In this document: piece by piece, positions 1-13,605 of the stretch
Layout of the letters: the number at the start of each line of letters is the position of its first letter
Numbering within the stretch: position 1 is the stretch's first letter
Virus genome (UHGV): UHGV-0206243
DNA length: 13,605 nt
Direction: 5' to 3' (one strand)
Origin: a virus
The notes under the pieces: model-generated
What the model saw: only the letters and a program-made list of their open reading frames with translations
What the model was told of the DNA's origin: nothing
Databases searched by the model: none
Position numbers and translations under genes: made by a program

Positions 1-63
1 AATCGGTGGAGCTGCATGACAAAGTCATCGGGCATTATCTGAACATAAAACACTATCAATAAG

Positions 64-1449
64 TTGGAGTCATTACCTGATACTCTGAGAAGAGAAACTT
101 TAGAATCATTTGCTATGATTATGCGATTCACTATACAGACAGTAAAAAATAATGATGAGTTGGTCGCGAAGGCCAATAATTTGATAAATGAATCTTTGAA
201 TGCTATTGTTAATTTTGATGAGTTTGAGGAGGCTAAATTAAATATTATTGCTGATAAATTGTGCCAGTTGATTATGCTTTTTAGAGATGCTGGCAATAAT
301 ATTATGTTTAGCCGGGCGACCTCAGAAAACTTACGCAGATTTATATATGAATGCCCATTGAAGAGAATCAAAGATTGCCTAACTAAAGTTGTTTCTATTT
401 CAGGAAATAAATTGTCTGCATCTAAAATAAGTTATGACTTCAGATATGATAAAAATAAAGGTGTGGTAAAGGTTTCGAGATTTGTTCTTCTAAATAAGAA
501 TGATGAAAGAATAGTTGAGCTGTTACCCAAAAAGAATAATGTCGTTGTATTGTCGGATGTTATCCCTCAAGAAGTATTTAGAGGATGTAAGTCTGATATC
601 TTAGAAATCATGAATCCTTATTCTTTGGGGCTATTCCCTGTCAATGAAGGACGTGGTTTTTATGTTTTTTTTGGAAATTCCTACAACCCTGTTGTTAACT
701 TTTTGTCACATGTTGTTTCTCTGGGAGTATTAATGCTTTCAAAAATGTTTGATGGCGAAAATGTTAATCATGTCAGCCCGTTGAGGGCATTTCCTCAGCG
801 TTATTATTTATTAGATAAAACAGTCAATCATGCTCAGTTAAATTCTGCTGATGGCTCTGAGTTGGCGGAGATTCTGAAGAAAAATACAAAAATAACAGAA
901 AACATAAACCTTCTTCTCGCTGAATTTAACTTAGCGGTTGATATAGTTAGAGTTAATGACATAATTCATAAGATAGTTATAAACCAAGATGCTGTTAATT
1001 TAGAATTGACAGATGTAGGGTTTGGAATATCACAAGTGTTGCCTGTCTTGGTTCAAGCTTATTTGTCACCAAAGGGCTCGATTACAATAATAGAACAACC
1101 AGAAATACATTTGCATCCTAAAATGCAGGCATGGTTAACTGACGCATTAATTAAAATATCTATGCAAGAAAAGAAAATTTTTATTATTGAAACACATAGT
1201 GATGCATTAGTTAGACGGATTAGATTAAGAATTGTTGATGAATCAAGCGAACTTACTGAGGACCATGTGGCAATCTATCATCTTGAGCGAGATGAAGAGG
1301 GAACATCAACCTTACTAAATAGAGTGGCTGTGAATTCTGATGGAGATATCACATGGCCAAATGAGTTTATGGATGTTGAGATTCAGGATACAATTAGAAT
1401 ACAGGAATTAAAAATACAAAAAATAATGAACTCAAAGGGAGTTCATTGA
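64..1449 (+). CDS. Hypothetical ABC/SMC-type ATPase C-terminal-module protein (signature-like, Walker-B-like and H-loop motifs; no Walker A); candidate defence component
   Basis: 461-codon ORF in about one-third-GC DNA. C-terminus reads GFGISQVLPVL...ITIIEQPEIHLHP...IFIIETHSDAL, resembling the signature/Walker B/H-loop end of AAA_21/DUF3696-type ATPases. No GxxxxGK[ST] anywhere. Start is uncertain: TTG at 64 follows an in-frame stop at 46-48, first ATG is at 112, and no clear Shine-Dalgarno precedes either. Confidence 0.6.
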   Translation: MESLPDTLRRETLESFAMIMRFTIQTVKNNDELVAKANNLINESLNAIVNFDEFEEAKLNIIADKLCQLIMLFRDAGNNIMFSRATSENLRRFIYECPLKRIKDCLTKVVSISGNKLSASKISYDFRYDKNKGVVKVSRFVLLNKNDERIVELLPKKNNVVVLSDVIPQEVFRGCKSDILEIMNPYSLGLFPVNEGRGFYVFFGNSYNPVVNFLSHVVSLGVLMLSKMFDGENVNHVSPLRAFPQRYYLLDKTVNHAQLNSADGSELAEILKKNTKITENINLLLAEFNLAVDIVRVNDIIHKIVINQDAVNLELTDVGFGISQVLPVLVQAYLSPKGSITIIEQPEIHLHPKMQAWLTDALIKISMQEKKIFIIETHSDALVRRIRLRIVDESSELTEDHVAIYHLERDEEGTSTLLNRVAVNSDGDITWPNEFMDVEIQDTIRIQELKIQKIMNSKGVH

Positions 1450-1450
1450 T

Positions 1451-2452
1451 ATGCTTTGTGCTGTTTGTTTGTGTCCTGAATTTGTTGCTGCTAATATTTC
1501 TGATGTTAAAGTTTTTAGCGGTTTTTTTATTGAAACCATTGTTAATGGTGAAAATGAGTTGATTCTTGATGCTGATGGAAAAATTCGCTTAGGTTATTTA
1601 AAGTCTTGCGGAAACAACAAGGATTCTTTTTTGTTTTTTAAGAAGTGGGAGTCTGAGTTATCTAAAGCTCCTTCAGGCAAGATATTGCGTACACCAGTGC
1701 CGAATAGTTCTGAGGATATTAAGGATATAGTTGTTTGTGCAGTTGCTAATGCAGCCACTACTTTTGATAAGCATATCGTAGTGTTAGATAATAATAGTTA
1801 CTCTGGATATATTGATGAATTAATCAGGCAAAGGATTAATTTGTTAAATCTTAATAGTATAAGCTTAATATCAAAGGATGGTCGAGTGCAGCGTCCTTTG
1901 AATTTTATAAAGTTTGATAGTGATTTATCTTGGGTGCTTCAAAGATTGGGGCGTCGCTCTGCTAAAGGATATGGTGAAGATGATTTTAATGATTTTATAC
2001 GGGATATGTTATTAGCTAAGAATTATGAGGTAAAAGATCAAACTAGAGAGGGAGAGTCTCAATCTGGTAAAAGTGCGGGTGAATTAGATCTTGTTATTGA
2101 AGATAAAGGAAATCTATTTGCTATAATAGAAGCATTGATTTTAAAATCTCTAGATCAAGCTAACATATTAAAGCATTATTCAAAGCTAATTGGTAACTAT
2201 AATCCTATTAATGTTAAACGCTTGTTTTTAATTGCTTATTATACTGGTGCAAAATTTGATGCTTGGTGTGAGAGATACATTGATTATCTAAAAGAGATTA
2301 CTCCGGTAGATATTGGTGTAGAATCTCATGAGATAGTTGGGATTAAAGAAGTGGAGACTCCATATATAGGTTTGAGAAAAATTGAACATCATTTTAGATA
2401 TGCGGGAGAACATTATTTTTGTGTTCATTATGCAGTCAAGATGGCTCGGTGA
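1451..2452 (+). CDS. Hypothetical protein, putative effector partner (possible PD-(D/E)xK-like nuclease core)
   Basis: 333-codon ORF. Shine-Dalgarno AAAGGGAG sits about 10 nt upstream, inside the 3' end of the preceding gene, and the ATG is 2 nt after that gene's TGA. Segment GELDLVIEDKGNLFAIIEALILK resembles the beta-strand core of PD-(D/E)xK nucleases but is not canonical. AT-rich like its neighbour. Confidence 0.6.
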   Translation: MLCAVCLCPEFVAANISDVKVFSGFFIETIVNGENELILDADGKIRLGYLKSCGNNKDSFLFFKKWESELSKAPSGKILRTPVPNSSEDIKDIVVCAVANAATTFDKHIVVLDNNSYSGYIDELIRQRINLLNLNSISLISKDGRVQRPLNFIKFDSDLSWVLQRLGRRSAKGYGEDDFNDFIRDMLLAKNYEVKDQTREGESQSGKSAGELDLVIEDKGNLFAIIEALILKSLDQANILKHYSKLIGNYNPINVKRLFLIAYYTGAKFDAWCERYIDYLKEITPVDIGVESHEIVGIKEVETPYIGLRKIEHHFRYAGEHYFCVHYAVKMAR

Positions 2453-2464
2453 TGTTTAATATGA

Positions 2465-2490
2465 ATGCACCTATAGGGTGCATCATTTTG
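2465..2490 (+). terminator. Candidate intrinsic terminator after the cargo operon
   Basis: Inverted repeat ATGCACC / GGTGCAT around a 5-nt loop, followed by CATTTTG, starting 12 nt after the stop at 2450-2452. The T-run is short, so this is weak. Confidence 0.35.
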
Positions 2491-2589
2491 CATGTTTAAA
2501 TACGTTCTCTATGTATGTGCGCTAGGCTTGACTGGCGCGCTTGTACTATGTTTATGCAACTGCATTAAAACCGACCCATGAAGCGGGCG

Positions 2590-2608
2590 GGCGAGGCGGG
2601 GAAAGCAC
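2590..2608. other. cos: P2-type cos cohesive-end sequence
   Basis: GGCGAGGCGGGGAAAGCAC matches the 19-nt P2 cohesive end as I recall it, and it lies just beyond the 3' end of Q as in P2. Confidence 0.8.
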
Positions 2609-2750
2609 TGCGCGCTGGCGGTGGTGCTGATTTTATTTTTTCAGCGTCTGAGCGCGTCGTGATGGCGTTTGGATTGTTCGCCGGGGCGTTGGTGTGTATG
2701 CGGGCTGTTTTGTGCGGTGGTGAGCGTGTGAGGGCGTGATGACGGGGTGT

Positions 2751-2773
2751 AAAAAAGCCGCCCGCAGGCGGCG
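2751..2773 (-). terminator. Intrinsic terminator downstream of portal gene Q
   Basis: On the minus strand: GCCGCC-TGCG-GGCGGC hairpin followed by TTTTTT, a few nt after the Q stop at 2778-2780. Confidence 0.7.
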
Positions 2774-2777
2774 ATGT

Positions 2778-3812
2778 TCAGCCGTTGTCAGTGTCCAGTG
2801 AGTAGTTTTTAAAGCGGATGACCTCCTGACCGAGCCAGCCGTTTATCTCGCGGATCCTGTCCTGTAACGGGATAAGCTCATTGCGGACAAAGACCTTTGC
2901 CACTTTCTCAATATCACCCAGCGACCCGACGTTCTCCGGCTTGCCGCCCATCAACTGAAAAGGGATGCGGTGCGCGTCCAGCAGGTCTGCGGCGCTGGCT
3001 TTTTTGATATTAAAAAAATCGTCCTTCGTTGCCACTTCACTGAGCGGGATAATTTTAATACCGTCGGCTTTTCCCTGTGGGGCGTAGAGAAACAGGTTTT
3101 TAAAGTTGTTGCGGCCTTTCGACTTCACCATGTTTTCGCGAAGCATTTCGATATCGTTGCGATCCTGCACGGCATCGGTGACGTACATGATATATCCGGC
3201 ATGAGCGCCGTTTTCGTAATACTTGCGGCGGAACAGCGTGGCCGACTCATTCAGCCAGGCAGAGTTAAGGGCGCTGAGATATTCCGGCAGGCCGTACAGC
3301 TCCTGATTGATATCCGGCTCCAGCAGGTGAAACACGGAGCCGGGCGCGAAAGGTGTCGGCTCGTTGAAGGATGGCACCCACCAGTAAACATCCTCCTCCA
3401 CGCCACGGCGGGTATATTTTGCCGGTGAGGTTTCCAGTCTGATGACCTTACCGGTAGTGCTGTAGCGCTTTTCCAGAAACGCATTACCGAACACCAGAAA
3501 ATCCAGCACAAAGCGGCTGAAATCCTGCTGGGAAAGCCACGGATGCGGGATAAATGTCGAGGCCAGAATATTACGTTTGACGTAAATCGGTGAGCTGTGA
3601 TGCACGGCAGCACGCAGGCTTTTTGCCAGACCGGTAAAGCTGACCGGTGGCTCATACCATCTGCCGTTACTGATGCATTCGACGTAATCCAGAATGTCAC
3701 GGCGGTCGAGTACCGGCACCGGCTCACCAAAGGTGAATGCCTCCATTTTCGGGGCGCTGGTGGTCATTGTTTTTGCCGCAGGTTGCGGTGTTTTCCCTTT
3801 TTTCTTGCTCAT
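2778..3812 (-). CDS. Q: Capsid portal protein
   Basis: 344 aa, the length I recall for P2 gpQ. Sequence matches recalled P2 portal; its ATG overlaps the stop of the upstream terminase remnant. Confidence 0.92.
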   Translation of the reverse strand: MSKKKGKTPQPAAKTMTTSAPKMEAFTFGEPVPVLDRRDILDYVECISNGRWYEPPVSFTGLAKSLRAAVHHSSPIYVKRNILASTFIPHPWLSQQDFSRFVLDFLVFGNAFLEKRYSTTGKVIRLETSPAKYTRRGVEEDVYWWVPSFNEPTPFAPGSVFHLLEPDINQELYGLPEYLSALNSAWLNESATLFRRKYYENGAHAGYIMYVTDAVQDRNDIEMLRENMVKSKGRNNFKNLFLYAPQGKADGIKIIPLSEVATKDDFFNIKKASAADLLDAHRIPFQLMGGKPENVGSLGDIEKVAKVFVRNELIPLQDRIREINGWLGQEVIRFKNYSLDTDNG

Positions 3813-4774
3813 CAGTAAAACTCCAGAATGGTGGATGTCAGCGGGGTGCTGATACCGGCGGTGAGTGGCTCATTTAACAGGGCGTGCATGGTCGCCCAGG
3901 CGAGGTCGGCGTGGCTGGCTTCCTCGCTGCGGCTGGCCTCATAGGTGGCGCTGCGTCCGCTGCTGGTCATGGTCTTGCGGATAGCCATAAACGAGCTGGT
4001 GATGTCGGTGGCGCTGACGTCATATTCCAGACAGCCACGGCGGATAACGTCTTTTGCCTTGAGCACCATTGCGGTTTTCATTTCCGGCGTGTAGCGGATA
4101 TCGCGCGCGGCGGGATAGAACGAGCGCACGAGCTGGAACACGCCGACACCGAGGCCGGTGGCATCAATACCGATGTATTCGACGTTGTATTTTTCAGTGA
4201 GTTTGCGGATGGATTCCGCCTGGGTGGCAAAGTCCATGCCTTTCCACTGATGGCGCTCAAGTATTCTGAATTTGCCACCGGCCACCACCGGCGGTGCCAG
4301 CACCACGCATCCGGCGCTGTCGCCACGGTGTGACGGGTCGTAACCAATCCATACCGGGCGGGAGCCGAACGGATTGGTGGCAAACGGCGCGTAGTCTTCC
4401 CATTCTTCCAGCGTGTCGACCATGCAGCGTTGCAGCTCCTCGAACGGGAACACTGACGCCTTGTCGTCAACAAATTCACACATGAACAGGTTTTTAAAAT
4501 CGTCGGCGCTGTTTTCGCGTTTGAGCTGCTCAATGTCGAACAGCGTGCAGCCGCCTTTCAGCGCGTCCTCAATGGTGACAATCTGCCGCCACTGACCGTC
4601 CGCACAGAGAAGCCCACCGGCAAGAGCGTTATGACTGACGTCGATTTCCACGCGTTCGGCGGCGCTGGCGCGTCCCCGGTTGAACAGTTCACCCGACCAG
4701 AACGGGTAGGCGTCGTGCGCCAGCGTGGACGGGGTGGAGAAATAGGTCGAGCGCAGGTGACTCTGTGAGGCCAT
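3812..4774 (-). pseudogene. P: Terminase large subunit, C-terminal (nuclease-domain) remnant; N-terminal ATPase region deleted
   Basis: 320-codon ORF ending directly at the Q start, as in the P2 P-Q operon. Contains nuclease-domain-like segments (IGIDATGLGVGV, DPSHRGDSAGCVV) but no Walker A. Recalled P2 gpP is about 590 aa. The frame is closed by a stop at 4787-4789, right beside the lysB start. Confidence 0.8.
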
Positions 4775-4783
4775 ACCTGAACC

Positions 4784-5209
4784 ATGTCAAAGCTGATGAT
4801 TGTGCTGGTTGTGTTGTTATCACTGGCGGTGGCCGGTCTGTTTCTGGCGAAGCATGAAAACGCCAGCCTGCGCGCCTTGCTGGACAGGGCGAACAACGTC
4901 GCCAGTGAACAGCAGACGACCATCACCATGCTGAAAAATCAGCTTCATGTTGCCATCACCAGGGCAGACAAAAACGAGCTGGCGCAGGTGGCTCTGCGTC
5001 AGGAACTGGAGAACGCCGCGAAGCGTGAAGCACAGCGCGAGAAAACCATCACGAGATTACTCAATGAAAACGAAGATTTTCGCCGCTGGTACGGTGCTGA
5101 CCTGCCTGATGCTGTGCGCCGGTTGCACCAGCGCCCCGCCTGCACTGACGCCAGTGATTGTCGCCAACGCCTGCCCGAAAGTGAGTCTTTGCCCGATGCC
5201 GGGCAGTGA
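4784..5209 (+). CDS. lysB: Rz-like i-spanin LysB
   Basis: 141 aa with an N-terminal hydrophobic segment (MSKLMIVLVVLLSLAVAGLFL), matching recalled P2 LysB. Confidence 0.9.
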   Translation: MSKLMIVLVVLLSLAVAGLFLAKHENASLRALLDRANNVASEQQTTITMLKNQLHVAITRADKNELAQVALRQELENAAKREAQREKTITRLLNENEDFRRWYGADLPDAVRRLHQRPACTDASDCRQRLPESESLPDAGQ

Positions 5210-5354
5210 CCCGGAGACGAACGGCGATTTAAGTGCCGATATCCGGCAGCTTGAGAACGCGCTGGCACGCTGTGCCAGCCAGGTAAAAATGATTAAACAC
5301 TGTCAGGACGAAAACGATGCTCAAACCCGACAGCCTGCGCAGGGCGCTGACTGA
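5064..5354 (+). CDS. lysC: Rz1-like o-spanin lipoprotein LysC
   Basis: 96 codons in the +1 frame, starting inside lysB and running into R. Lipoprotein signal MKTKIFAAGTVLTCLMLCAGC. The track ORF starts upstream at 4947; the start at 5064 is chosen from the signal peptide. Confidence 0.8.
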   Translation: MKTKIFAAGTVLTCLMLCAGCTSAPPALTPVIVANACPKVSLCPMPGSDPETNGDLSADIRQLENALARCASQVKMIKHCQDENDAQTRQPAQGAD

Positions 5355-5784
5355 TGCCGTCACGGTGCTGAAAACCAGTCCAGAGATGCTGCGGATATTC
5401 GTGGATAACGGGAGTATTGCCTCCACACTGGCGACGTCGCTGTCATTCGAAAAGCGTTACACGCTCAATGTGATTGTGACCGACTTTACCGGTGATTTTG
5501 ACCTGCTCATCGTGCCGGTGCTGGCGTGGCTGCGGGAAAATCAGCCCGACATCATGACCACCGACGAAGGCCAGAAAAAGGGCTTCACGTTTTATGCGGA
5601 CATCAACAATGACAGCAGCTTTGATATCAGCATCAGCCTGATGCTGACCGAGCGCACGCTGGTCAGTGAGGTTGACGGCGCGCTGCATGTGAAGAATATC
5701 CCGGAACCACCGCCGCCGGAGCCGGTCACCCGCCCGATGGAGCTTTATATCAATGGTGAACTGGTGAGTAAGTGGGATGAATGA
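5317..5784 (+). CDS. R: Tail completion protein R
   Basis: 155 aa; matches recalled P2 gpR in length and sequence. Confidence 0.9.
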   Translation: MLKPDSLRRALTDAVTVLKTSPEMLRIFVDNGSIASTLATSLSFEKRYTLNVIVTDFTGDFDLLIVPVLAWLRENQPDIMTTDEGQKKGFTFYADINNDSSFDISISLMLTERTLVSEVDGALHVKNIPEPPPPEPVTRPMELYINGELVSKWDE

Positions 5785-6229
5785 GTTTAAGCGTTTTGAA
5801 GACCGGCTGACCGGACTGATTGAGTCGCTGTCACCATCAGGGCGTCGGCGACTGAGTGCCGAACTGGCGAAACGTCTGCGGCAGAGTCAGCAGCATCGTG
5901 TGATGGCACAGAAAGCCCCGGACGGCACCCCCTACGCGCCACGCCAGCAGCAGAGCGCCAGAAAAAAGACCGGTCGCGTTAAGCGAAAAATGTTTGCGAA
6001 ACTTATCACCAGTCGTTTTTTGCATATCCGCGCCAGCCCTGAACAGGCATCAATGGAGTTTTACGGCGGGAAGTCACCGAAAATCGCCAGTGTGCATCAG
6101 TTCGGTCTGTCGGAAGAAACCCGGAAAGACGGTAAGAAAATTGATTATCCGGCGCGTCCTCTGCTCGGCTTTACCGGTGAGGATGTGCAGATGATTGAAG
6201 AGATTATCCTGGCTCACCTCGACCGTTAG
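5777..6229 (+). CDS. S: Tail completion protein S
   Basis: 150 aa; matches recalled P2 gpS; overlaps the R stop. Confidence 0.9.
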   Translation: MNEFKRFEDRLTGLIESLSPSGRRRLSAELAKRLRQSQQHRVMAQKAPDGTPYAPRQQQSARKKTGRVKRKMFAKLITSRFLHIRASPEQASMEFYGGKSPKIASVHQFGLSEETRKDGKKIDYPARPLLGFTGEDVQMIEEIILAHLDR

Positions 6230-6230
6230 T

Positions 6231-6248
6231 TGTGCCATTCCCGACACA
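6231..6248 (+). promoter_or_regulatory. Candidate Ogr-dependent late promoter activator site (TGT-N12-ACA) upstream of V
   Basis: TGTGCCATTCCCGACACA is an exact TGT-N12-ACA dyad in the S-V intergenic gap, the form described for P2 late promoters. Its spacing to the V ATG at 6296 is tighter than I would expect. Confidence 0.45.
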
Positions 6249-6295
6249 TCATCGTTACATTGCCGCCGGTATGACCCGGAGGCATCCTTCCCGTT

Positions 6296-6931
6296 ATGAA
6301 CACTCTCGCAAATATCCAGGAACTCGCGCGCGCACTGCGCAACATGATTCGTACCGGCCTTGTCGTCGAAACCAACCTTAAAGCCGGTCGCTGCCGTGTG
6401 CAGACCGGCGGCATGTGCACCGACTGGCTTCAGTGGCTGACCCATCGCGCCGGACGTTCGCGCACATGGTGGGCACCTTCCGTGGGGGAACAGGTGCTGA
6501 TTCTGGCCGTGGGCGGTGAACTCGACACGGCGTTCGTTCTGCCGGGGATTTATTCCGGCGATAACCCCGCGCCGTCTGCGTCGGCGGATGCCCTGCATAT
6601 CCGTTTCCCTGACGGGGCGGTGATTGAGTATGAACCTGAAACCAGTGCACTGACGGTAAGCGGAATTAAAACGGCCAGCGTGACGGCTTCTGATTCTGTT
6701 ACTGCCACGGTGCCGGTGGTCATGGTGAAAGCGTCAACCCGCGTCACCCTGGACACACCGGAGGTGGTCTGCACCAACAGGCTGATTACCGGCACGCTGG
6801 AAGTACAGAAGGGTGGGACGATGCGCGGCAACATTGAACACACCGGCGGTGAACTCTCATCAAACGGTAAGGTACTGCATACCCATAAACACCCCGGCGA
6901 CAGCGGCGGCACAACCGGGAGTCCTCTATGA
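6296..6931 (+). CDS. V: Baseplate spike/assembly protein V
   Basis: 211 aa; matches recalled P2 gpV. Confidence 0.92.
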   Translation: MNTLANIQELARALRNMIRTGLVVETNLKAGRCRVQTGGMCTDWLQWLTHRAGRSRTWWAPSVGEQVLILAVGGELDTAFVLPGIYSGDNPAPSASADALHIRFPDGAVIEYEPETSALTVSGIKTASVTASDSVTATVPVVMVKASTRVTLDTPEVVCTNRLITGTLEVQKGGTMRGNIEHTGGELSSNGKVLHTHKHPGDSGGTTGSPL

Positions 6932-7275
6932 CAGCGCGTTATCTCGGAATGAATCGCAGTGATGGCCTGACTGTCACTGACCTTGAGCATATCAGCCAGA
7001 GTATCGGCGATATCCTGCGCACACCGGTCGGCTCACGGGTGATGCGTCGTGATTACGGCTCGTTGCTGGCGTCAATGATTGACCAGCCGCAGACTCCGGC
7101 GCTTGAGTTGCAGATTAAGGTCGCCTGTTACATGGCAGTGCTGAAATGGGAACCCCGCGTCACCCTGTCATCCGTCACCACTGAGCGCAGTTTTGACGGG
7201 CGAATGACGGTCACGTTAACCGGCCAGCACAACGACACCGGCCAGCCACTTTCGTTAACCATCCCTGTGAGTTGA
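6928..7275 (+). CDS. W: Baseplate protein W (gp25-like)
   Basis: 115 aa; matches recalled P2 gpW; GGGAG Shine-Dalgarno upstream; ATG overlaps the V stop. Confidence 0.92.
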   Translation: MTARYLGMNRSDGLTVTDLEHISQSIGDILRTPVGSRVMRRDYGSLLASMIDQPQTPALELQIKVACYMAVLKWEPRVTLSSVTTERSFDGRMTVTLTGQHNDTGQPLSLTIPVS

Positions 7276-7279
7276 AACC

Positions 7280-7384
7280 ATGCCGATTATCGACCTGAAC
7301 CAGCTACCCGCACCGGATGTGGTCGAGGAGCTGGACTTTGAAACCATTCTCGCCGAACGCAAGGCGACACTGATTTCCCTTTAA
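7280..7384 (+). pseudogene. J: Baseplate protein J, N-terminal 34-codon stub
   Basis: [34 protein letters not shown] matches the recalled P2 gpJ N-terminus, then hits TAA at 7382-7384 where sheath-gene sequence begins out of frame. Confidence 0.85.
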
Positions 7385-8193
7385 CCGGTGTTAAACCGCG
7401 TATTCTTGGTGTGCCGGGGCTGGATACCAAAGAGGTGGCTGTTGCACTGGCATCAGTCTGTCAGAAGCTGCGCGCTTTCGGGTATATCAGCGCATGGGGC
7501 TGTAAAACCATTTCCGAGGTGAAAGCCTACCGCCAGAATTTCAGCCAGCGTGAGCTGATGGTCATCTGGCCGGATTTCCTCGCATGGGATACAGTCAACA
7601 GTACCACCGCCACCGCGTATGCCACCGCCCGTGCGCTGGGTCTGCGTGCCAAAATCGACCAGGAGCAGGGCTGGCATAAAACGCTGTCCAACGTCGGGGT
7701 AAACGGTGTTACCGGCATCAGCGCGTCCGTATTCTGGGATTTGCAGGAGTCCGGTACCGATGCTGACCTGCTTAACGAGTCTGGCGTCACAACGCTGATT
7801 CGCCGCGACGGTTTCCGATTCTGGGGTAACCGTACCTGCTCCGATGACCCGCTGTTCCTCTTTGAAAACTACACCCGCACCGCGCAGGTGTTGGCCGACA
7901 CGATGGCTGAGGCGCACATGTGGGCGGTGGATAAGCCCATCACCGCAACGCTGATTCGCGACATCGTTGACGGCATCAATGCCAAATTTCGTGAGCTGAA
8001 AACAAACGGCTATATCGTGGATGCGACCTGCTGGTTCAGCGAAGAATCCAACGATGCGGAAACCCTTAAGGCCGGAAAACTGTATATCGACTACGACTAT
8101 ACACCGGTGCCTCCTCTCGAAAACCTGACCCTGCGCCAGCGTATTACCGATAAATACCTGGCAAATCTGGTCACCTCGGTTAACAGCAATTAA
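7384..8193 (+). pseudogene. FI: Tail sheath protein FI, C-terminal portion only
   Basis: Sheath-frame homology ([18 protein letters not shown]... to ...[10 protein letters not shown]) begins at about 7384; the track ORF starts at GTG 7411. About 260-270 codons remain of a recalled ~396-aa protein. No native start or promoter. Confidence 0.85.
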
Positions 8194-8205
8194 GGAGCCT
8201 GACCG

Positions 8206-8724
8206 ATGGCAATGCCGCGCAAACTCAAGTTAATGAACGTCTTTCTGAACGGCTACAGCTATCAGGGCGTTGCAAAGTCCGTCACGCTGCCAAAACTGAC
8301 CCGTAAGCTCGAAAACTATCGCGGTGCGGGGATGAACGGCAGCGCACCGGTAGACCTCGGCCTTGATGATGATGCGCTGTCAATGGAGTGGTCGCTCGGG
8401 GGCTTCCCGGATTCGGTTATCTGGGAGCTTTACGCCGCAACCGGCGTGGATGCCGTGCCGATTCGTTTTGCAGGCTCTTACCAGCGCGACGATACCGGCG
8501 AAACGGTGGCCGTCGAAGTGGTCATGCGTGGACGTCAGAAAGAAATCGACACCGGCGAGGGCAAACAGGGAGAAGACACCGAGTCGAAAATCTCCGTGGT
8601 CTGCACCTATTTCCGGCTGACGATGGACGGTAAGGAGCTGGTCGAAATCGACACCATCAACATGATTGAGAAGGTGAACGGCGTCGACCGGCTGGAGCAA
8701 CACCGCCGCAATATCGGCCTGTGA
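8206..8724 (+). CDS. FII: Tail tube protein FII
   Basis: 172 aa; matches recalled P2 gpFII; AAGGAG Shine-Dalgarno upstream. Confidence 0.92.
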   Translation: MAMPRKLKLMNVFLNGYSYQGVAKSVTLPKLTRKLENYRGAGMNGSAPVDLGLDDDALSMEWSLGGFPDSVIWELYAATGVDAVPIRFAGSYQRDDTGETVAVEVVMRGRQKEIDTGEGKQGEDTESKISVVCTYFRLTMDGKELVEIDTINMIEKVNGVDRLEQHRRNIGL

Positions 8725-8780
8725 TTTTCATCCGGTCAGCCTGGCTGACCGGTTAACACCGATTCAGAAGTGAGAAAACC

Positions 8781-9056
8781 ATGAACAAAGAAAATGTGAT
8801 TACCCTGGACAATCCGGTCAAGCGTGGTGAGCAGGTTATCGAACAGGTCACGCTGATGAAACCCAATGCCGGGACGCTGCGCGGTGTCAGTCTGGCTGCG
8901 GTCGCGAACTCTGAAGTCGATGCACTGATTAAGGTGCTGCCGCGCATGACGGCACCGATGCTGACCGAGCAGGAAGTCGCCGCGCTGGAACTGCCTGACC
9001 TTGTGGCGCTGGCCGGTAAGGTGGTCGGTTTTTTGTCGCCGAACTCGGTGCAGTGA
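8781..9056 (+). CDS. E: Tail assembly chaperone E
   Basis: 91 aa; matches recalled P2 gpE. Confidence 0.9.
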   Translation: MNKENVITLDNPVKRGEQVIEQVTLMKPNAGTLRGVSLAAVANSEVDALIKVLPRMTAPMLTEQEVAALELPDLVALAGKVVGFLSPNSVQ

Positions 9057-9208
9057 CGTTTCCGAAAAATCTCTCGGTCGATGACCTGATGGCAGATGTG
9101 GCTGTGATATTTCACTGGCCGCCATCAGAACTGTATCCCATGAGCCTGACCGAACTCATCACATGGCGCGAAAAGGCGCTCCGGCGAAGCGGAAACACGA
9201 ATGAGTAA
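8781..9208 (+). CDS. E': Tail assembly chaperone E+E' (programmed -1 frameshift product; slip site TTTTTTG at 9029..9035)
   Basis: I translated the -1 frame from the T6G slip site by hand: it is open to TAA at 9206-9208 and ends ...LTELITWREKALRRSGNTNE, about 142 aa in total, overlapping the T start. Confidence 0.8.
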
Positions 9209-11648
9209 CAATGTAAAATTACAGGTATTGCTCAGGGCTGTTGACCAGGCATCCCGCCCGTTTAAATCCATCCGTACAGCGAGCAAGTCGCTGTCGGGGG
9301 ATATCCGGGAAACACAAAAATCACTGCGCGAGCTGAACGGTCAGGCGTCCCGTATTGAGGGATTTCGCAAGACCAGTGCGCAGCTCGCCGTGACTGGTCA
9401 TGCACTTGAAAAGGCTCGGCAGGAAGCCGAAGCCCTTGCCACACAGTTTAAAAACACCGAACGTCCGACCCGTGCTCAGGCGAAAGTGCTGGAGTCCGCG
9501 AAGCGTGCGGCGGAGGACTTACAGGCGAAATATAACCGCCTGACGGATTCCGTTAAACGCCAGCAACGGGAACTGGCCGCTGTGGGAATTAATACCCGCA
9601 ATCTTGCACATGATGAGCAGGGACTGAAAAACCGTATCAGTGAAACCACCGCACAGCTTAACCGTCAGCGCGACGCGCTGGCGCGTGTCAGTGCGCAACA
9701 GGCAAAACTTAACGCAGTCAAACAGCGTTATCAGGCAGGCAAGGAACTGGCCGGAAATATGGCCTCGGTGGGCGCTGCCGGTGTGGGGATTGCGGCGGCG
9801 GGAACGATGGCCGGAGTTAAGCTGCTGATGCCCGGTTATGAGTTTGCGCAGAAAAACTCAGAATTGCAGGCCGTGCTCGGTGTGGCAAAAGATTCCGCCG
9901 AAATGGCCGCGCTACGCAAACAGGCGCGCCAGCTCGGCGACAATACCGCCGCCTCGGCGGATGATGCGGCCGGTGCGCAGATTATTATTGCGAAAGCCGG
10001 TGGGGATGTTGATGCCATTCAGGCGGCAACGCCGGTCACGCTGAACATGGCGCTGGCGAACCGCCGCACGATGGAAGAAAACGCCGCCCTGCTGATGGGG
10101 ATGAAATCCGCCTTTCAGCTTTCAAACGATAAGGTCGCTCATATCGGGGATGTTCTCTCCATGACGATGAACAAAACCGCCGCCGATTTTGACGGCATGA
10201 GCGATGCGCTGACCTATGCCGCACCTGTGGCAAAAAATGCCGGTGTCAGCATTGAAGAAACCGCCGCGATGGTCGGGGCGCTGCATGATGCAAAAATCAC
10301 AGGCTCAATGGCGGGGACGGGAAGCCGTGCCGTGTTAAGCCGCCTGCAGGCACCGACGGGAAAAGCATGGGATGCACTCAAAGAGCTTGGAGTGAAAACC
10401 TCAGACAGCAAGGGAAACACCCGGCCAATATTTACCATTCTGAAAGAAATGCAGGCCAGTTTTGAGAAAAACCGGCTCGGTACTGCCCAGCAGGCTGAAT
10501 ACATGAAAACTATTTTCGGGGAGGAGGCCAGCTCAGCCGCCGCCGTGCTGATGACTGCCGCCTCAACCGGAAAGCTGGACAAACTGGCCGCTGCGTTTAA
10601 AGCCTCAGACGGAAAGACCGCAGAGCTGGTAAATATCATGCAGGACAACCTCGGCGGTGACTTTAAGGAGTTTCAGTCCGCTTATGAGGCGGTGGGGACT
10701 GACCTGTTTGACCAGCAGGAAGGCGCACTGCGTAAGCTCACGCAGACGGCCACAAAGTATGTGTTAAAACTCGACGGCTGGATCCAGAAAAACAAATCAC
10801 TGGCGTCAACCATCGGCCTTATTGTCGGTGGTGCACTGGCGCTGACTGGCATCATCGGTGCAATTGGTCTTGTAGCCTGGCCGGTTATCACCGGCATCAA
10901 TGCCATCATCGCGGCAGCAGGCGCAATGGGGGCAGTCTTCACGACGGTTGGCAGTGCTGTTATGACGGCCATCGGGGCGATTAGCTGGCCGGTTGTGGCC
11001 GTGGTGGCCGCCATTGTCGCCGGGGCGTTGCTTATCCGTAAATACTGGGAGCCTGTCAGCGCATTCTTTGGCGGTGTGGTGGAAGGGCTGAAAGCGGCAT
11101 TTGCGCCGGTGGGGGAACTGTTCACGCCACTTAAGCCGGTGTTTGACTGGCTGGGCGAAAAGTTACAGGCCGCGTGGCAGTGGTTTAAAAACCTGATTGC
11201 CCCGGTCAAAGCCACCCAGGACACCCTGAACCGTTGCCGTGACACGGGCGTCATGTTCGGGCAGGCACTGGCTGACGCGCTGATGCTGCCGCTTAATGCG
11301 TTCAACAAACTGCGCGGCGGTATTGACTGGGTACTGGAAAAACTCGGCGTCATCAACAAAGAGTCAGGCACGCTTGACCAGACTGCCGCCAGAACTCATG
11401 CCGCCACGTATGGCACCGGTGGTTATATTCCGGCGACCAGCTCTTATGCTGGCTATCAGGCTTATCAGCCAGTTACGGCACCGGCTGGCCGCTCTTATGT
11501 GGACCAGAGTAAAAACGAATATCACATCAGCCTGACGGGGGGTACTGCGCCGGGGACACAGCTTGACCGCCAGTTACAGGATGCGCTCGAAAAATACGAG
11601 CGGGATAAACGTGCGCGCGCCCGTGCCAGCATGATGCATGACGGTTAA
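9201..11648 (+). CDS. T: Tail tape measure protein T
   Basis: 815 aa; coiled-coil-like N-terminal region and a Gly/Ala-rich hydrophobic C-terminal region; matches recalled P2 gpT. Confidence 0.92.
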   Translation: MSNNVKLQVLLRAVDQASRPFKSIRTASKSLSGDIRETQKSLRELNGQASRIEGFRKTSAQLAVTGHALEKARQEAEALATQFKNTERPTRAQAKVLESAKRAAEDLQAKYNRLTDSVKRQQRELAAVGINTRNLAHDEQGLKNRISETTAQLNRQRDALARVSAQQAKLNAVKQRYQAGKELAGNMASVGAAGVGIAAAGTMAGVKLLMPGYEFAQKNSELQAVLGVAKDSAEMAALRKQARQLGDNTAASADDAAGAQIIIAKAGGDVDAIQAATPVTLNMALANRRTMEENAALLMGMKSAFQLSNDKVAHIGDVLSMTMNKTAADFDGMSDALTYAAPVAKNAGVSIEETAAMVGALHDAKITGSMAGTGSRAVLSRLQAPTGKAWDALKELGVKTSDSKGNTRPIFTILKEMQASFEKNRLGTAQQAEYMKTIFGEEASSAAAVLMTAASTGKLDKLAAAFKASDGKTAELVNIMQDNLGGDFKEFQSAYEAVGTDLFDQQEGALRKLTQTATKYVLKLDGWIQKNKSLASTIGLIVGGALALTGIIGAIGLVAWPVITGINAIIAAAGAMGAVFTTVGSAVMTAIGAISWPVVAVVAAIVAGALLIRKYWEPVSAFFGGVVEGLKAAFAPVGELFTPLKPVFDWLGEKLQAAWQWFKNLIAPVKATQDTLNRCRDTGVMFGQALADALMLPLNAFNKLRGGIDWVLEKLGVINKESGTLDQTAARTHAATYGTGGYIPATSSYAGYQAYQPVTAPAGRSYVDQSKNEYHISLTGGTAPGTQLDRQLQDALEKYERDKRARARASMMHDG

Positions 11649-11662
11649 GGAGGTGACGAAAA

Positions 11663-12142
11663 ATGATGCTCGCGTTAGGTATGTTTGTTTTTATGCGCCA
11701 GACGCTGCCACACCAGACCATGCAGCGTGAATCAGATTATCGCTGGCCGTCAAATTCCCGTATCGGTAAACGGGATGCCTTTCAGTTTCTCGGTGTTGGC
11801 GAGGAAAACATCACGCTGGCCGGTGTGCTTTATCCCGAACTGACCGGCGGCAAGCTGACGATGACCACGCTCAGGCTGATGGCAGAGGAAGGTCGGGCGT
11901 GGCCGTTGCTGGATGGTACCGGCATGATTTACGGCATGTATGTCATCAGTAAGGTGAGTGAAACAGGGAGTATTTTCTTTGCAGACGGCACACCCCGAAA
12001 AATTGATTTTACGCTGTCGCTCACCCGCGTTGATGAATCACTGGCCGCGCTTTATGGCGATATCGGTAAACAGGCGGAATCGCTCATCGGTAAGGCTGGC
12101 AGTATGGCGACTAAATTCACGGGTATGACGGAGGCGGGATAA
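11663..12142 (+). CDS. U: Tail protein U
   Basis: 159 aa; AAGGAGG Shine-Dalgarno upstream; matches recalled P2 gpU. Confidence 0.9.
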   Translation: MMLALGMFVFMRQTLPHQTMQRESDYRWPSNSRIGKRDAFQFLGVGEENITLAGVLYPELTGGKLTMTTLRLMAEEGRAWPLLDGTGMIYGMYVISKVSETGSIFFADGTPRKIDFTLSLTRVDESLAALYGDIGKQAESLIGKAGSMATKFTGMTEAG

Positions 12143-13305
12143 TGCTGGATGCGCTGACATTTGATGCAGGCAGTACGCTGACGCCGGATTACATGCTGAT
12201 GCTCGACAGCAGGGATATTACCGGCAATATCAGCGACCGTCTGATGAGCATGACCCTGACGGATAACCGGGGCTTTGAGGCTGACCAGCTTGATATTGAA
12301 CTGAACGACGCCGACGGGCAGGTCGGGCTACCGATTCGTGGCGCTGTCCTGACGGTGTATATCGGCTGGAAAGGTTTTGCCCTGGTATGCAAAGGGAAAT
12401 TTACCGTTGATGAGGTTGAACACCGGGGCGCGCCGGATGTGGTTACCATCCGCGCCCGGAGTGCAGATTTCCGCGGGACGCTTAATTCCCGCCGGGAAGG
12501 CTCCTGGCATGACACCACGCTCGGCGCGATTGTTGAGGCGATAGCCTCCCGTAACAGGCTGGAAGCCAGTGTCGCTCCGTCACTGGCCGGAATTAAAATT
12601 CCGCATATCGACCAGTCGCAGGAGTCTGATGCGAAATTCCTGACCCGCCTTGCTGAACGCAACGGCGGTGAGGTGTCGGTAAAAATGGGAAAACTGCTGT
12701 TTCTCAAAGCGGGGCAGGGGGTGACGGCCAGCGGTAAAAAAATCCCGCAGATTACCATCACCCGCAGCGACGGCGACCGTCATCATTTTGCGATTGCTGA
12801 CCGTGGAGCTTACACCGGCGTAACGGCAAAGTGGTTACACACCAAAGACCCGAAGCCGCAAAAGCAGAAGGTAAAACTGAAACGCAAAAAGAAAGAGAAA
12901 CACCTGCGCGCACTGGAGCACCCAAAAGCGAAACCGGTCAGGCAGAAGAAAGCGCCAAAAGTACCGGAAGCGCGCGAAGGTGAATATATGGCCGGTGAGG
13001 CTGACAATGTTTTTGCCCTGACCACGGTATATGCCACGAAAGCGCAGGCCATGCGCGCCGCTCAGGCGAAGTGGGATAAACTGCAACGGGGCGTTGCGGA
13101 GTTCTCCATCAGCCTGGCTACCGGTCGGGCAGATATTTACACGGAAACACCGGTTAAAGTGTCAGGCTTTAAGCGCGTCATAGACGAGCAGGACTGGACA
13201 ATCACTAAGGTGACACATTTTCTGAATAATAGCGGCTTCACGACGTCCCTGGAGCTTGAGGTCAGGCTTTCTGATGTGGAGTACGAAACAGAAGATGATG
13301 AGTGA
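12142..13305 (+). CDS. D: Tail protein D
   Basis: 387 aa; GGAGG Shine-Dalgarno upstream; matches recalled P2 gpD, including an internal lysine-rich stretch. Confidence 0.9.
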   Translation: MLDALTFDAGSTLTPDYMLMLDSRDITGNISDRLMSMTLTDNRGFEADQLDIELNDADGQVGLPIRGAVLTVYIGWKGFALVCKGKFTVDEVEHRGAPDVVTIRARSADFRGTLNSRREGSWHDTTLGAIVEAIASRNRLEASVAPSLAGIKIPHIDQSQESDAKFLTRLAERNGGEVSVKMGKLLFLKAGQGVTASGKKIPQITITRSDGDRHHFAIADRGAYTGVTAKWLHTKDPKPQKQKVKLKRKKKEKHLRALEHPKAKPVRQKKAPKVPEAREGEYMAGEADNVFALTTVYATKAQAMRAAQAKWDKLQRGVAEFSISLATGRADIYTETPVKVSGFKRVIDEQDWTITKVTHFLNNSGFTTSLELEVRLSDVEYETEDDE

Positions 13306-13323
13306 TGTTTTTATTTTATCTAT

Positions 13324-13352
13324 TTGTTTTATAAGGATAAATTAACTAAAAT
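13324..13352 (+). promoter_or_regulatory. Candidate sigma70 promoter for ogr
   Basis: TTGTTT, 17-nt spacer, TAAAAT in the AT-rich D-ogr gap; a GAAGAGG Shine-Dalgarno and the ogr ATG follow. Confidence 0.45.
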
Positions 13353-13386
13353 GGCACCATCAACAAAACCGGAAGAGGTGCTCGCG

Positions 13387-13605
13387 ATGTTTCATTGTCC
13401 TTTATGCCAGCATGCCGCACATGCGCGTACAAGCCGCTATATCACTGACACGACAAAAGAGCGTTATCACCAGTGCCAGAACGTGAATTGCAGCGCCACG
13501 TTCATCACTTATGAGTCGGTACAGAGATACATCGTGAAGCCGGGAGAAGTCCACGCCGTGAGGCCGCACCCGTTGCCGTCAGGGCAGCAAATTATGTGGA
13601 TGTAA
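13387..13605 (+). CDS. ogr: Late transcription activator Ogr (zinc-finger)
   Basis: 72 aa from MFHCPLCQHA... to ...QQIMWM with a Cys-x2-Cys...Cys-x4-Cys pattern; matches recalled P2 Ogr. The track ORF's TTG start at 13324 lies in the promoter region and is rejected. Confidence 0.9.
   Translation: MFHCPLCQHAAHARTSRYITDTTKERYHQCQNVNCSATFITYESVQRYIVKPGEVHAVRPHPLPSGQQIMWM

Follow-up and report, generated by a model that had tools for sequence, protein, structure and literature searches.

In P2 and its relatives, the cohesive-end (cos) site lies between the terminator of the portal gene Q on its right and a variable lysogenic-conversion locus on its left. In an intact phage of this kind, the terminase, composed of gpM and gpP, would nick the two strands 19 nt apart and so give the virion DNA cohesive ends with 5′ overhangs of 19 nt. 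A "55-bp core" is common to the cos regions of P2, P4, and 186 (credited to Ziermann and Calendar, 1990, by PMC5694545 and PMC9594776), and longer cos flanks are reported to have raised the transduction of P2 cosmids more than 1000-fold (PMC9594776). The gpA-gpQ locus adjoining cos is a hotspot for defence systems in P2-like phages (Rousset et al., 2022, PMC9122126), and retrons replace DNA adjoining cos in a 186-like prophage (Dodd and Egan, 1996, as cited in PMC5694545); a variable cargo island next to cos in P2-like phages is established and already published knowledge. The satellite P4 carries the same 19-nt sequence, the 55-bp core, and three TGCAT motifs at −124, −111, and −101 (distances here and below are counted from the 19-mer), and outside the cos region it has nothing in common with P2. 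It has an int gene and an attachment site of its own and relies on the terminase and capsids of a helper phage. Defective P2-related prophage remnants are carried by Escherichia coli B and K-12.

Here we analyze 13,605 nt of the virus genome UHGV-0206243 (the window, meaning the whole stretch at its full length). The original prediction for this DNA was that an intact P2-type cos, flanked by a cargo island, marks the physical ends of a phage genome, and that the capsid-less prophage around it, cargo included, could in principle still be packaged in trans by a co-resident P2-like helper.

Results

The Window Contains an Intact P2-Type cos Core

The sequence GGCGAGGCGGGGAAAGCAC occurs as a single copy in the window, at 2590–2608 on the plus strand. 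It is identical to cosL (1–19) and cosR (33575–33593) of P2 (NC_001895), and on the strength of this identity we annotate it as the 19-nt cohesive-end sequence, the equivalent of cosN. It also follows the 19-mer pattern of the P2 family (Peduoviridae), GGCG(A/T)GGCGGGGAAAGCA(C/T), and 200 dinucleotide-preserving shuffles gave no match to GGCGAGGCGGGGAAAGCAC with three or fewer mismatches. The predicted cohesive end is therefore both exact and unique. With regard to the ends of virion DNA, the database records of P2 and of fiAA91-ss both begin with this 19-mer, and on this evidence the site would indeed mark the physical ends of the genome, as had been proposed.

For comparison of the surrounding sequence, the linear P2, P4, and 186 records were end-joined and then aligned by anchoring them on the 19-mer. 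The three records have a block in common that begins with TGCATTAAAACC, 29 nt left of the 19-mer, and ends with GCGCGC, 7 nt to its right; this places the 55-bp cos core at 2561–2615 (plus strand) of the window. The core agrees with that of P2 at 53 of its 55 positions; both mismatches, a C>A and a G>A substitution within P2 CCGCCCCGT (window CCGACCCAT), carry the bases found in 186. Five cultured Peduoviruses (9W, GMS190, vB_YpM_50, vB_EcoM-569R9, and vB_YpM_22) show one to four core differences each from the window and are near-identical to it over 2609–2680, and every variant core base of the window occurs in 186 or in cultured Peduoviruses. The exact 55-mer of the window is present in 25 IMG/VR contigs. 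As far as sequence comparison can tell, the site falls inside the natural variation of working cos sites. Alignment to the cos regions of P2 and 186, which had been suggested as a check for a mutated site, points to flanks that are not altered beyond this natural variation, because the TGCAT repeats at −111 and −101 are exact (the one at −124 reads TGCAC).

The site also occupies the position typical of the P2 family, with the portal-gene terminator on one side and the right-end variable locus on the other. A 53-aa open reading frame that crosses cos (2578–2739) was rejected as spurious, as it has no Pfam match and its frame is broken by 1-base indels in P2, 9W, and YpM_22. With gathering thresholds, Rfam gave no matches anywhere in the window.

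The Right Flank Matches P2

To the right of the 19-mer, a GT-rich non-coding spacer (2609–2756), which is at least 90% identical across 25 loci and has no counterpart in P4, leads to tQ, the intrinsic terminator of the P-Q operon (2757–2772, minus strand). The terminator scan found six G-C pairs followed by TTTTTT at this position, which corresponds to P2 tQ at 160–181. The portal gene Q (2778–3812, minus strand; PF04860) is intact and encodes 344 aa. The region between cos and tQ is rich in G and T on the plus strand, with a GC skew of +0.27 and an AT skew of about −0.22 to −0.26. The GC content is 0.29–0.37 to the left of about 2550, 0.49 in 2401–2700, and at least 0.57 from 2551, so that the compositional break predicted at cos is borne out as a jump from 33% to 57% near 2550. 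A GT-rich region and the Q terminator had been predicted on the right and AT-rich cargo on the left; both are found there, except that the first 125 bp on the left hold motifs conserved across the family and are not simply cargo.

The closest described site, that of P2, shares this arrangement of tQ and Q to the right and a variable locus to the left, as well as TGCAT motifs at the same distances. Compared with P2, the window has the two 186-like core bases, TGCAC at −124, and the motif CTGGCGCG at −58, which P2 lacks. Unlike the cos of P2, that of the window lies inside a deleted prophage without a terminase of its own.

TGCAT Repeats Stand at Fixed Distances to the Left of cos

Homology among P2-like phages stops about 7 nt to the left of the 55-bp core, near 2554. 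Beyond this point, the left flanks are unrelated between phages, with the exception of TGCAT motifs at fixed, ungapped distances from the 19-mer. The window contains exact copies of this family repeat at 2479–2483 (−111) and 2489–2493 (−101) and the variant TGCAC at 2466–2470 (−124), all on the plus strand. A terminator-like hairpin, with the −124 and −111 copies as the two arms of its stem and TTTTGCATG after it, is present in many lineages; the equivalent in the window, ATGCACC-TATAG-GGTGCAT (2465–2483), is followed by CATTTTGCAT, and the terminator scan reports the whole element at 2465–2493 on the plus strand. The anchored alignments also place CTGGCGCG at 2532–2539 (−58 to −51, plus strand). 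Near −58, this motif is semi-conserved and frequent, being present in P4, 186, and many P2-like cos regions and absent from P2.

We counted the repeats by lineage, a lineage being defined by a spacer (−95 to −40) less than 70% identical to the others. In a first set of 20 lineages, TGCAT was found within 1 nt of −101 in 18, of −111 in 14, and of −124 in 6, against a background frequency in these flanks of about 0.017 per position. For a second set, 53 Enterobacterales cos sites were collected from Kosakonia, Phytobacter, Mangrovibacter, Citrobacter, Raoultella, Erwinia, Edwardsiella, and other genera by scanning genome contigs with the degenerate 19-mer and removing chance matches in GC-rich, non-enterobacterial sequences by requiring a P2-type core. 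These sites represent 36 lineages, and the same three positions (±1 nt) were occupied in 29, 27, and 18 of them, respectively. The motifs are also found in P2, P4, 186, and Enterobacter phage ENT4, and the array was seen at −124 to −97 in loci L001, L009, L010, L036–L046, and L051–L167. A scan of IMG/VR for P4-type cos sites gave only three loci, too few to use.

The spacer of about 60 bp between the repeats and the core is unrelated in sequence among lineages and constant in length. Because its length is fixed while its sequence is free, and because P4, which outside the core has no other sequence in common with P2, depends on the same terminase for its packaging, we infer, short of a demonstration, that the TGCAT repeats at −124, −111, and −101 belong to the packaging signal, of which they may be an unrecognized part. 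Such a role is consistent with the effect of flank length on cosmid transduction (PMC9594776), and the array suggests that the functional packaging signal reaches about 125 bp to the left of the 19-mer.

The Surrounding Prophage Is Heavily Deleted

The window was aligned to P2 (NC_001895) by blastn. The right end of P2, including cosR (P2 33546–33593), matches 2561–2608 of the window at 95.8% identity, and cosL, tQ, Q, and the 3′ part of P (P2 1–2189) match 2590–4780 at 97.1%. These are followed by lysB, lysC, R, and S (4779–6231; P2 7917–9369; 96.1%), by V, W, and the start of J (6296–7388; P2 10308–11400; 97.2%), and by the 3′ part of FI together with FII, E, T, U, D, and ogr (7382–13605; P2 18031–24254; 97.1%). 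The cos site is no better conserved than the 96%–97% identical backbone around it.

The first deletion, corresponding to P2 2190–7916, has removed the 5′ 270 codons of P as well as O, N, M, L, X, Y, K, and lysA, and joins P2 2189 to P2 7917 at 4779/4780. The P2 alignment and Pfam show that the large terminase gene P (3812–4774, minus strand) is thereby truncated to the C-terminal 320 of 590 aa; the product matches only profile positions 121–215 of Terminase_6N, plus Terminase_6C, and the ATPase domain is missing. The second deletion (P2 11401–18030) has removed most of J, all of I, H, G, and fun(Z), and the 5′ part of FI, and its junction at 7382–7388 joins P2 11400 in J to P2 18031 in FI across a 7-bp microhomology. 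Between S and V, 64 bp (6232–6295) replace P2 orf30 and its flanks (P2 9370–10307), a known variable spot in P2-like genomes. As a result of the deletions, the prophage in the window is without the small terminase, head genes, lysis genes (lysA etc.), tail fibers, and an intact sheath, and with these essentials of lytic growth lost it is a defective (cryptic) prophage. The description of the prophage as capsid-less was correct and, with O, N, M, L, X, Y, K, lysA, and the 5′ part of P all gone, understated the damage.

Related Contigs Extend the Element and Place It in the Chromosome

Contigs with the same architecture were found by a look-up of the truncated 320-aa P product. L008 is 100% identical to the whole window, IS1 included, and L002 is 100% identical to 78–13605 and extends further, the prophage sequence being 100% identical between two independent assemblies. 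In L002, the whole element measures 19,250 bp (57% of the P2 genome), lies between cpxP and fieF, and ends in perfect 47-bp direct repeats, GACACCATCCCTGTCTTCCCCCACATGATGTGGGGGTTTTTTTTATC, at 658–704 and 19908–19954 of the reverse complement. Its int open reading frame is full length (336 aa), and its A gene encodes 756 aa. The cpxP-fieF attachment site is served by an int allele that is only 70%–80% identical to P2 int. A third deletion, at 18965–19163 of L002 and outside the window, amounts to 852 bp missing in comparison with L004, a full-length relative with the same int allele (99.7%). Gone with it are the whole of cox and the Pe/Pc region, together with the 5′ end of B and the 5′ half of the repressor gene C, and the relic is therefore without immunity, excisionase, and early promoter.

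In a second, independent P2 relic, L006, P2 2185 in P is fused directly to P2 23485 in D (9849–10001 of the contig). All that remains of this prophage is ogr, D′, ′P, Q, cos, the early region, and a cargo of another kind (AAA_23, MC5, and CTD9). The junctions of L006 and of the window within P are separated by 4 nt (P2 2185 versus P2 2189). We rejected a deletion hotspot in P as probably an artifact of the look-up, because a query with the exact 320-aa product selects junctions just upstream of its ATG.

The 38-mer spanning the deletion junction had no exact matches in IMG/VR viral contigs or in JGI metagenomes, and none of the complete RefSeq E. coli genomes has this architecture, deletion set, or cpxP-fieF location. 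This distribution gives no sign of horizontal spread. The same combination of cargo and cos is present in E. coli E308 (H46), over a 24-kb match that takes in full-length prophage genes, and in two IMG/VR contigs of 25–27 kb (L029 and L034). With the junction absent from these collections and the cargo and cos found elsewhere, the relic appears to have arisen recently, by the decay of a phage with this cassette, and to have been inherited vertically.

The Cargo Is a Candidate Defence Cassette

The cargo ATPase gene is interrupted by an IS1 element, whose terminal 77 bp form the left end of the window (1–77); this stretch matches IS1A/IS1B ends at 100% identity in 4,961 of 5,426 complete E. coli genomes. 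At the same site, the ATPase sequence of L002 is uninterrupted, and L008 carries the IS1. The 3′ part of the gene (78–1449, plus strand) encodes an ABC-type ATPase (Pfam AAA_15, 4.7e-15; AAA_21, 8.2e-12), about 99 N-terminal codons of which lie beyond the IS1 junction. A 461-aa open reading frame with a TTG start listed at 64–1449 is an artifact, since it starts inside IS1. The intact ATPase of L002 (555 aa) matches the PADLOC models NsnB (2.3e-51), HEC-03B (5.2e-43), PDC-M55A (4.7e-41), and AriA (3.3e-28), all of which are candidate-defence models. The second cargo gene (1451–2452, plus strand) encodes a 333-aa protein of no recognized family, with no match in Pfam and none in PADLOC at E ≤ 0.001, where the single weak match is to CARF_PDDEXK (E = 0.0076).

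In L002, the gene order is A, the 555-aa ATPase, the 333-aa open reading frame, cos, and Q. As in the gpA-gpQ hotspot of P2-like phages, a low-GC two-gene cassette thus stands between A and cos, and the left flanks of the 20–36 lineages are unrelated beyond the cos elements, as expected of this hotspot. By its position and its PADLOC matches, the cargo is a candidate defence cassette in the published hotspot. The P2 hotspot genes old and tin read away from cos, whereas the cargo genes of the window read toward it. The cassette further differs from described hotspot systems in that its ATPase gene is interrupted by IS1 and in that it is a candidate for defence only.

Discussion

We conclude, with a probability of about 0.88, that positions 2466–2615 of the window are a P2-family (Peduovirus) cos within a recent, heavily deleted relic, and that the site has survived passively and is not demonstrably in use. 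Cos has its usual place here, with the portal gene Q and its terminator on one side and on the other the variable old/tin locus (gpA to cos), the known hotspot for anti-phage cargo. The relic has lost its head genes, small terminase, lysis, tail fiber, and baseplate genes, and half of the sheath gene; cox, the early promoters, and the 5′ half of C are likewise gone, and an IS1 sits in the cargo. In the course of events that we propose, cos would have persisted as a small target (about 150 bp) in young DNA. The identity of the site, its position, the deletions, and the conservation of its motifs are read directly from the alignments; a helper terminase, we infer from them, would still cleave it. 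Cos is no better conserved than its neighbors, and passive persistence is the simplest account. Against it stands the independent relic L006, which also keeps ′P-Q-cos-cargo-A...int with its late genes lost. This could hint at selective retention of that segment, the look-up itself being biased toward such junctions.

The known defective P2-related remnants of E. coli B and K-12 have likewise been inactivated by internal deletions and IS insertion and likewise remain at their attachment site. The relic differs from them in its own set of deletions and in its cpxP-fieF site, neither of which was found in complete RefSeq E. coli genomes. P4-like satellites combine alpha, epsilon, delta, sid, and psu with cos, int, and att; the relic resembles P4 in having int and att and otherwise contains only P2 backbone genes. 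Unlike P4, it has no alpha primase-helicase, no sid, no genes for helper derepression or transactivation except ogr, and no excisionase. It is a decaying prophage and not an adapted satellite.

There is virtually no chance that the 19-mer is an accidental or non-functional look-alike and not a cos. The degenerate pattern does match by chance in GC-rich genomes outside Enterobacterales, and 67 of the 120 loci returned were without a P2-type core, but the match in the window lies inside 11 kb of collinear P2 homology and comes with the full 55-bp core and the flanking motifs, and the shuffles gave no match; these results together already refute this reading. It is a different matter whether the relic can still be mobilized. 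A P2-like helper, co-resident or superinfecting, would have to provide Int/Cox, Ogr, terminase, heads, and tails, upon which a circle of 19–20 kb would be packaged from its own cos and carry the cargo to new hosts. The signal required in cis appears intact, extended motifs included, the perfect 47-bp att repeats flank 19,250 bp with a full-length int (336 aa), and the int allele is shared (99.7%) by phages of full length (L004 and L005). P2 terminase packages any cos-bearing circle in trans, as it does for P4, P4 cosmids (PMC2231350), and P2 cosmids (PMC9594776), and under-length DNA is tolerated, P4 cosmids of 4.7–8.7 kb having been packaged in heads of 11.6-kb capacity (PMC2231350). Against this, the monomer, at 57%–60% of P2 length, is an awkward size and the dimer would reach 115%, and the helper must share the Int specificity of the relic. 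The deletions of cox, Pe/Pc, and parts of C (5′ half) and B (5′ end), together with the loss of the int promoter region, leave the relic unable to excise or replicate unaided, Cox being needed for excision (P2 annotation, NC_001895). Gene A of P2 is described as cis-acting (Liu et al., 1993, as cited in PMC5694545), and a helper should therefore not replicate the relic; if A acts as described, then with Pe lost the element would not be amplified. Moreover, IMG/VR and JGI metagenomes lack the deletion junction, complete RefSeq E. coli genomes lack the architecture, and the cargo in the window is inactivated by IS1. Mobilization of the whole relic is for these reasons decidedly unlikely. The original prediction was right about the identity of cos and the loss of the capsid genes; its further step, from an intact cos to packaging by a helper, is not supported as stated, given the loss of cox, Pe/Pc, C, and B sequences, the cis-acting A, the IS1 in the cargo, and a distribution that gives no sign of spread. 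An intact cos alone is no proof that the element can still spread.

Alternatively, cos might act as an initiator of recombination: a helper terminase would cut it in the chromosome, and the break would drive homologous exchange by which the cargo is marker-rescued into a viable phage. The cargo is bounded by conserved P2-like sequence, with A on one side and cos-Q on the other, this cargo and this cos also adjoin each other in E. coli E308 (H46), L029, and L034, and Rousset et al. offer the speculation that exchange at the hotspot is driven by cohesive ends (PMC9122126). These lines of support are entirely indirect, and ordinary RecA-mediated recombination requires no cut at cos. P2 terminase prefers monomeric closed circles, which makes cutting of cos within the chromosome doubtful, and we know of no evidence that it cuts a chromosome-embedded cos. 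(PMC6893505 touches on this preference in general terms.) Recombination initiated at cos is fairly unlikely, and marker rescue of the cassette, possibly stimulated by a cut at cos, seems more plausible than packaging of the whole relic. It is very improbable that the relic represents an early satellite-like stage, in which most virion genes have been shed, att, int, A/ori, Q, the complete extended cos, and the cassette have been kept, and excision and packaging could be taken over by a P2-like helper of matching integrase type. The second relic, L006, with its ′P-Q-cos-cargo-A-int segment, is compatible with such a stage, and if it were real, decaying prophages would be helper-mobilized defence cassettes. 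More generally, should relics be packaged or donate their cargo to incoming phages, decayed prophages would be active reservoirs for the exchange of defence systems. As it stands, the survival of cos in a decaying prophage adds little beyond confirming the P2-type cos annotation and placing the cargo in a published hotspot.

The TGCAT array at fixed distances may be the only item that goes beyond the known literature, and it is possibly useful for the design of P2/P4 cosmids. On a smaller scale, the terminator scan also reported a pair of hairpins with T-runs that flank the 19-mer almost symmetrically, at 2574–2588 on the minus strand and 2612–2627 on the plus strand, which probably reflect a partial dyad symmetry of the nicking site.
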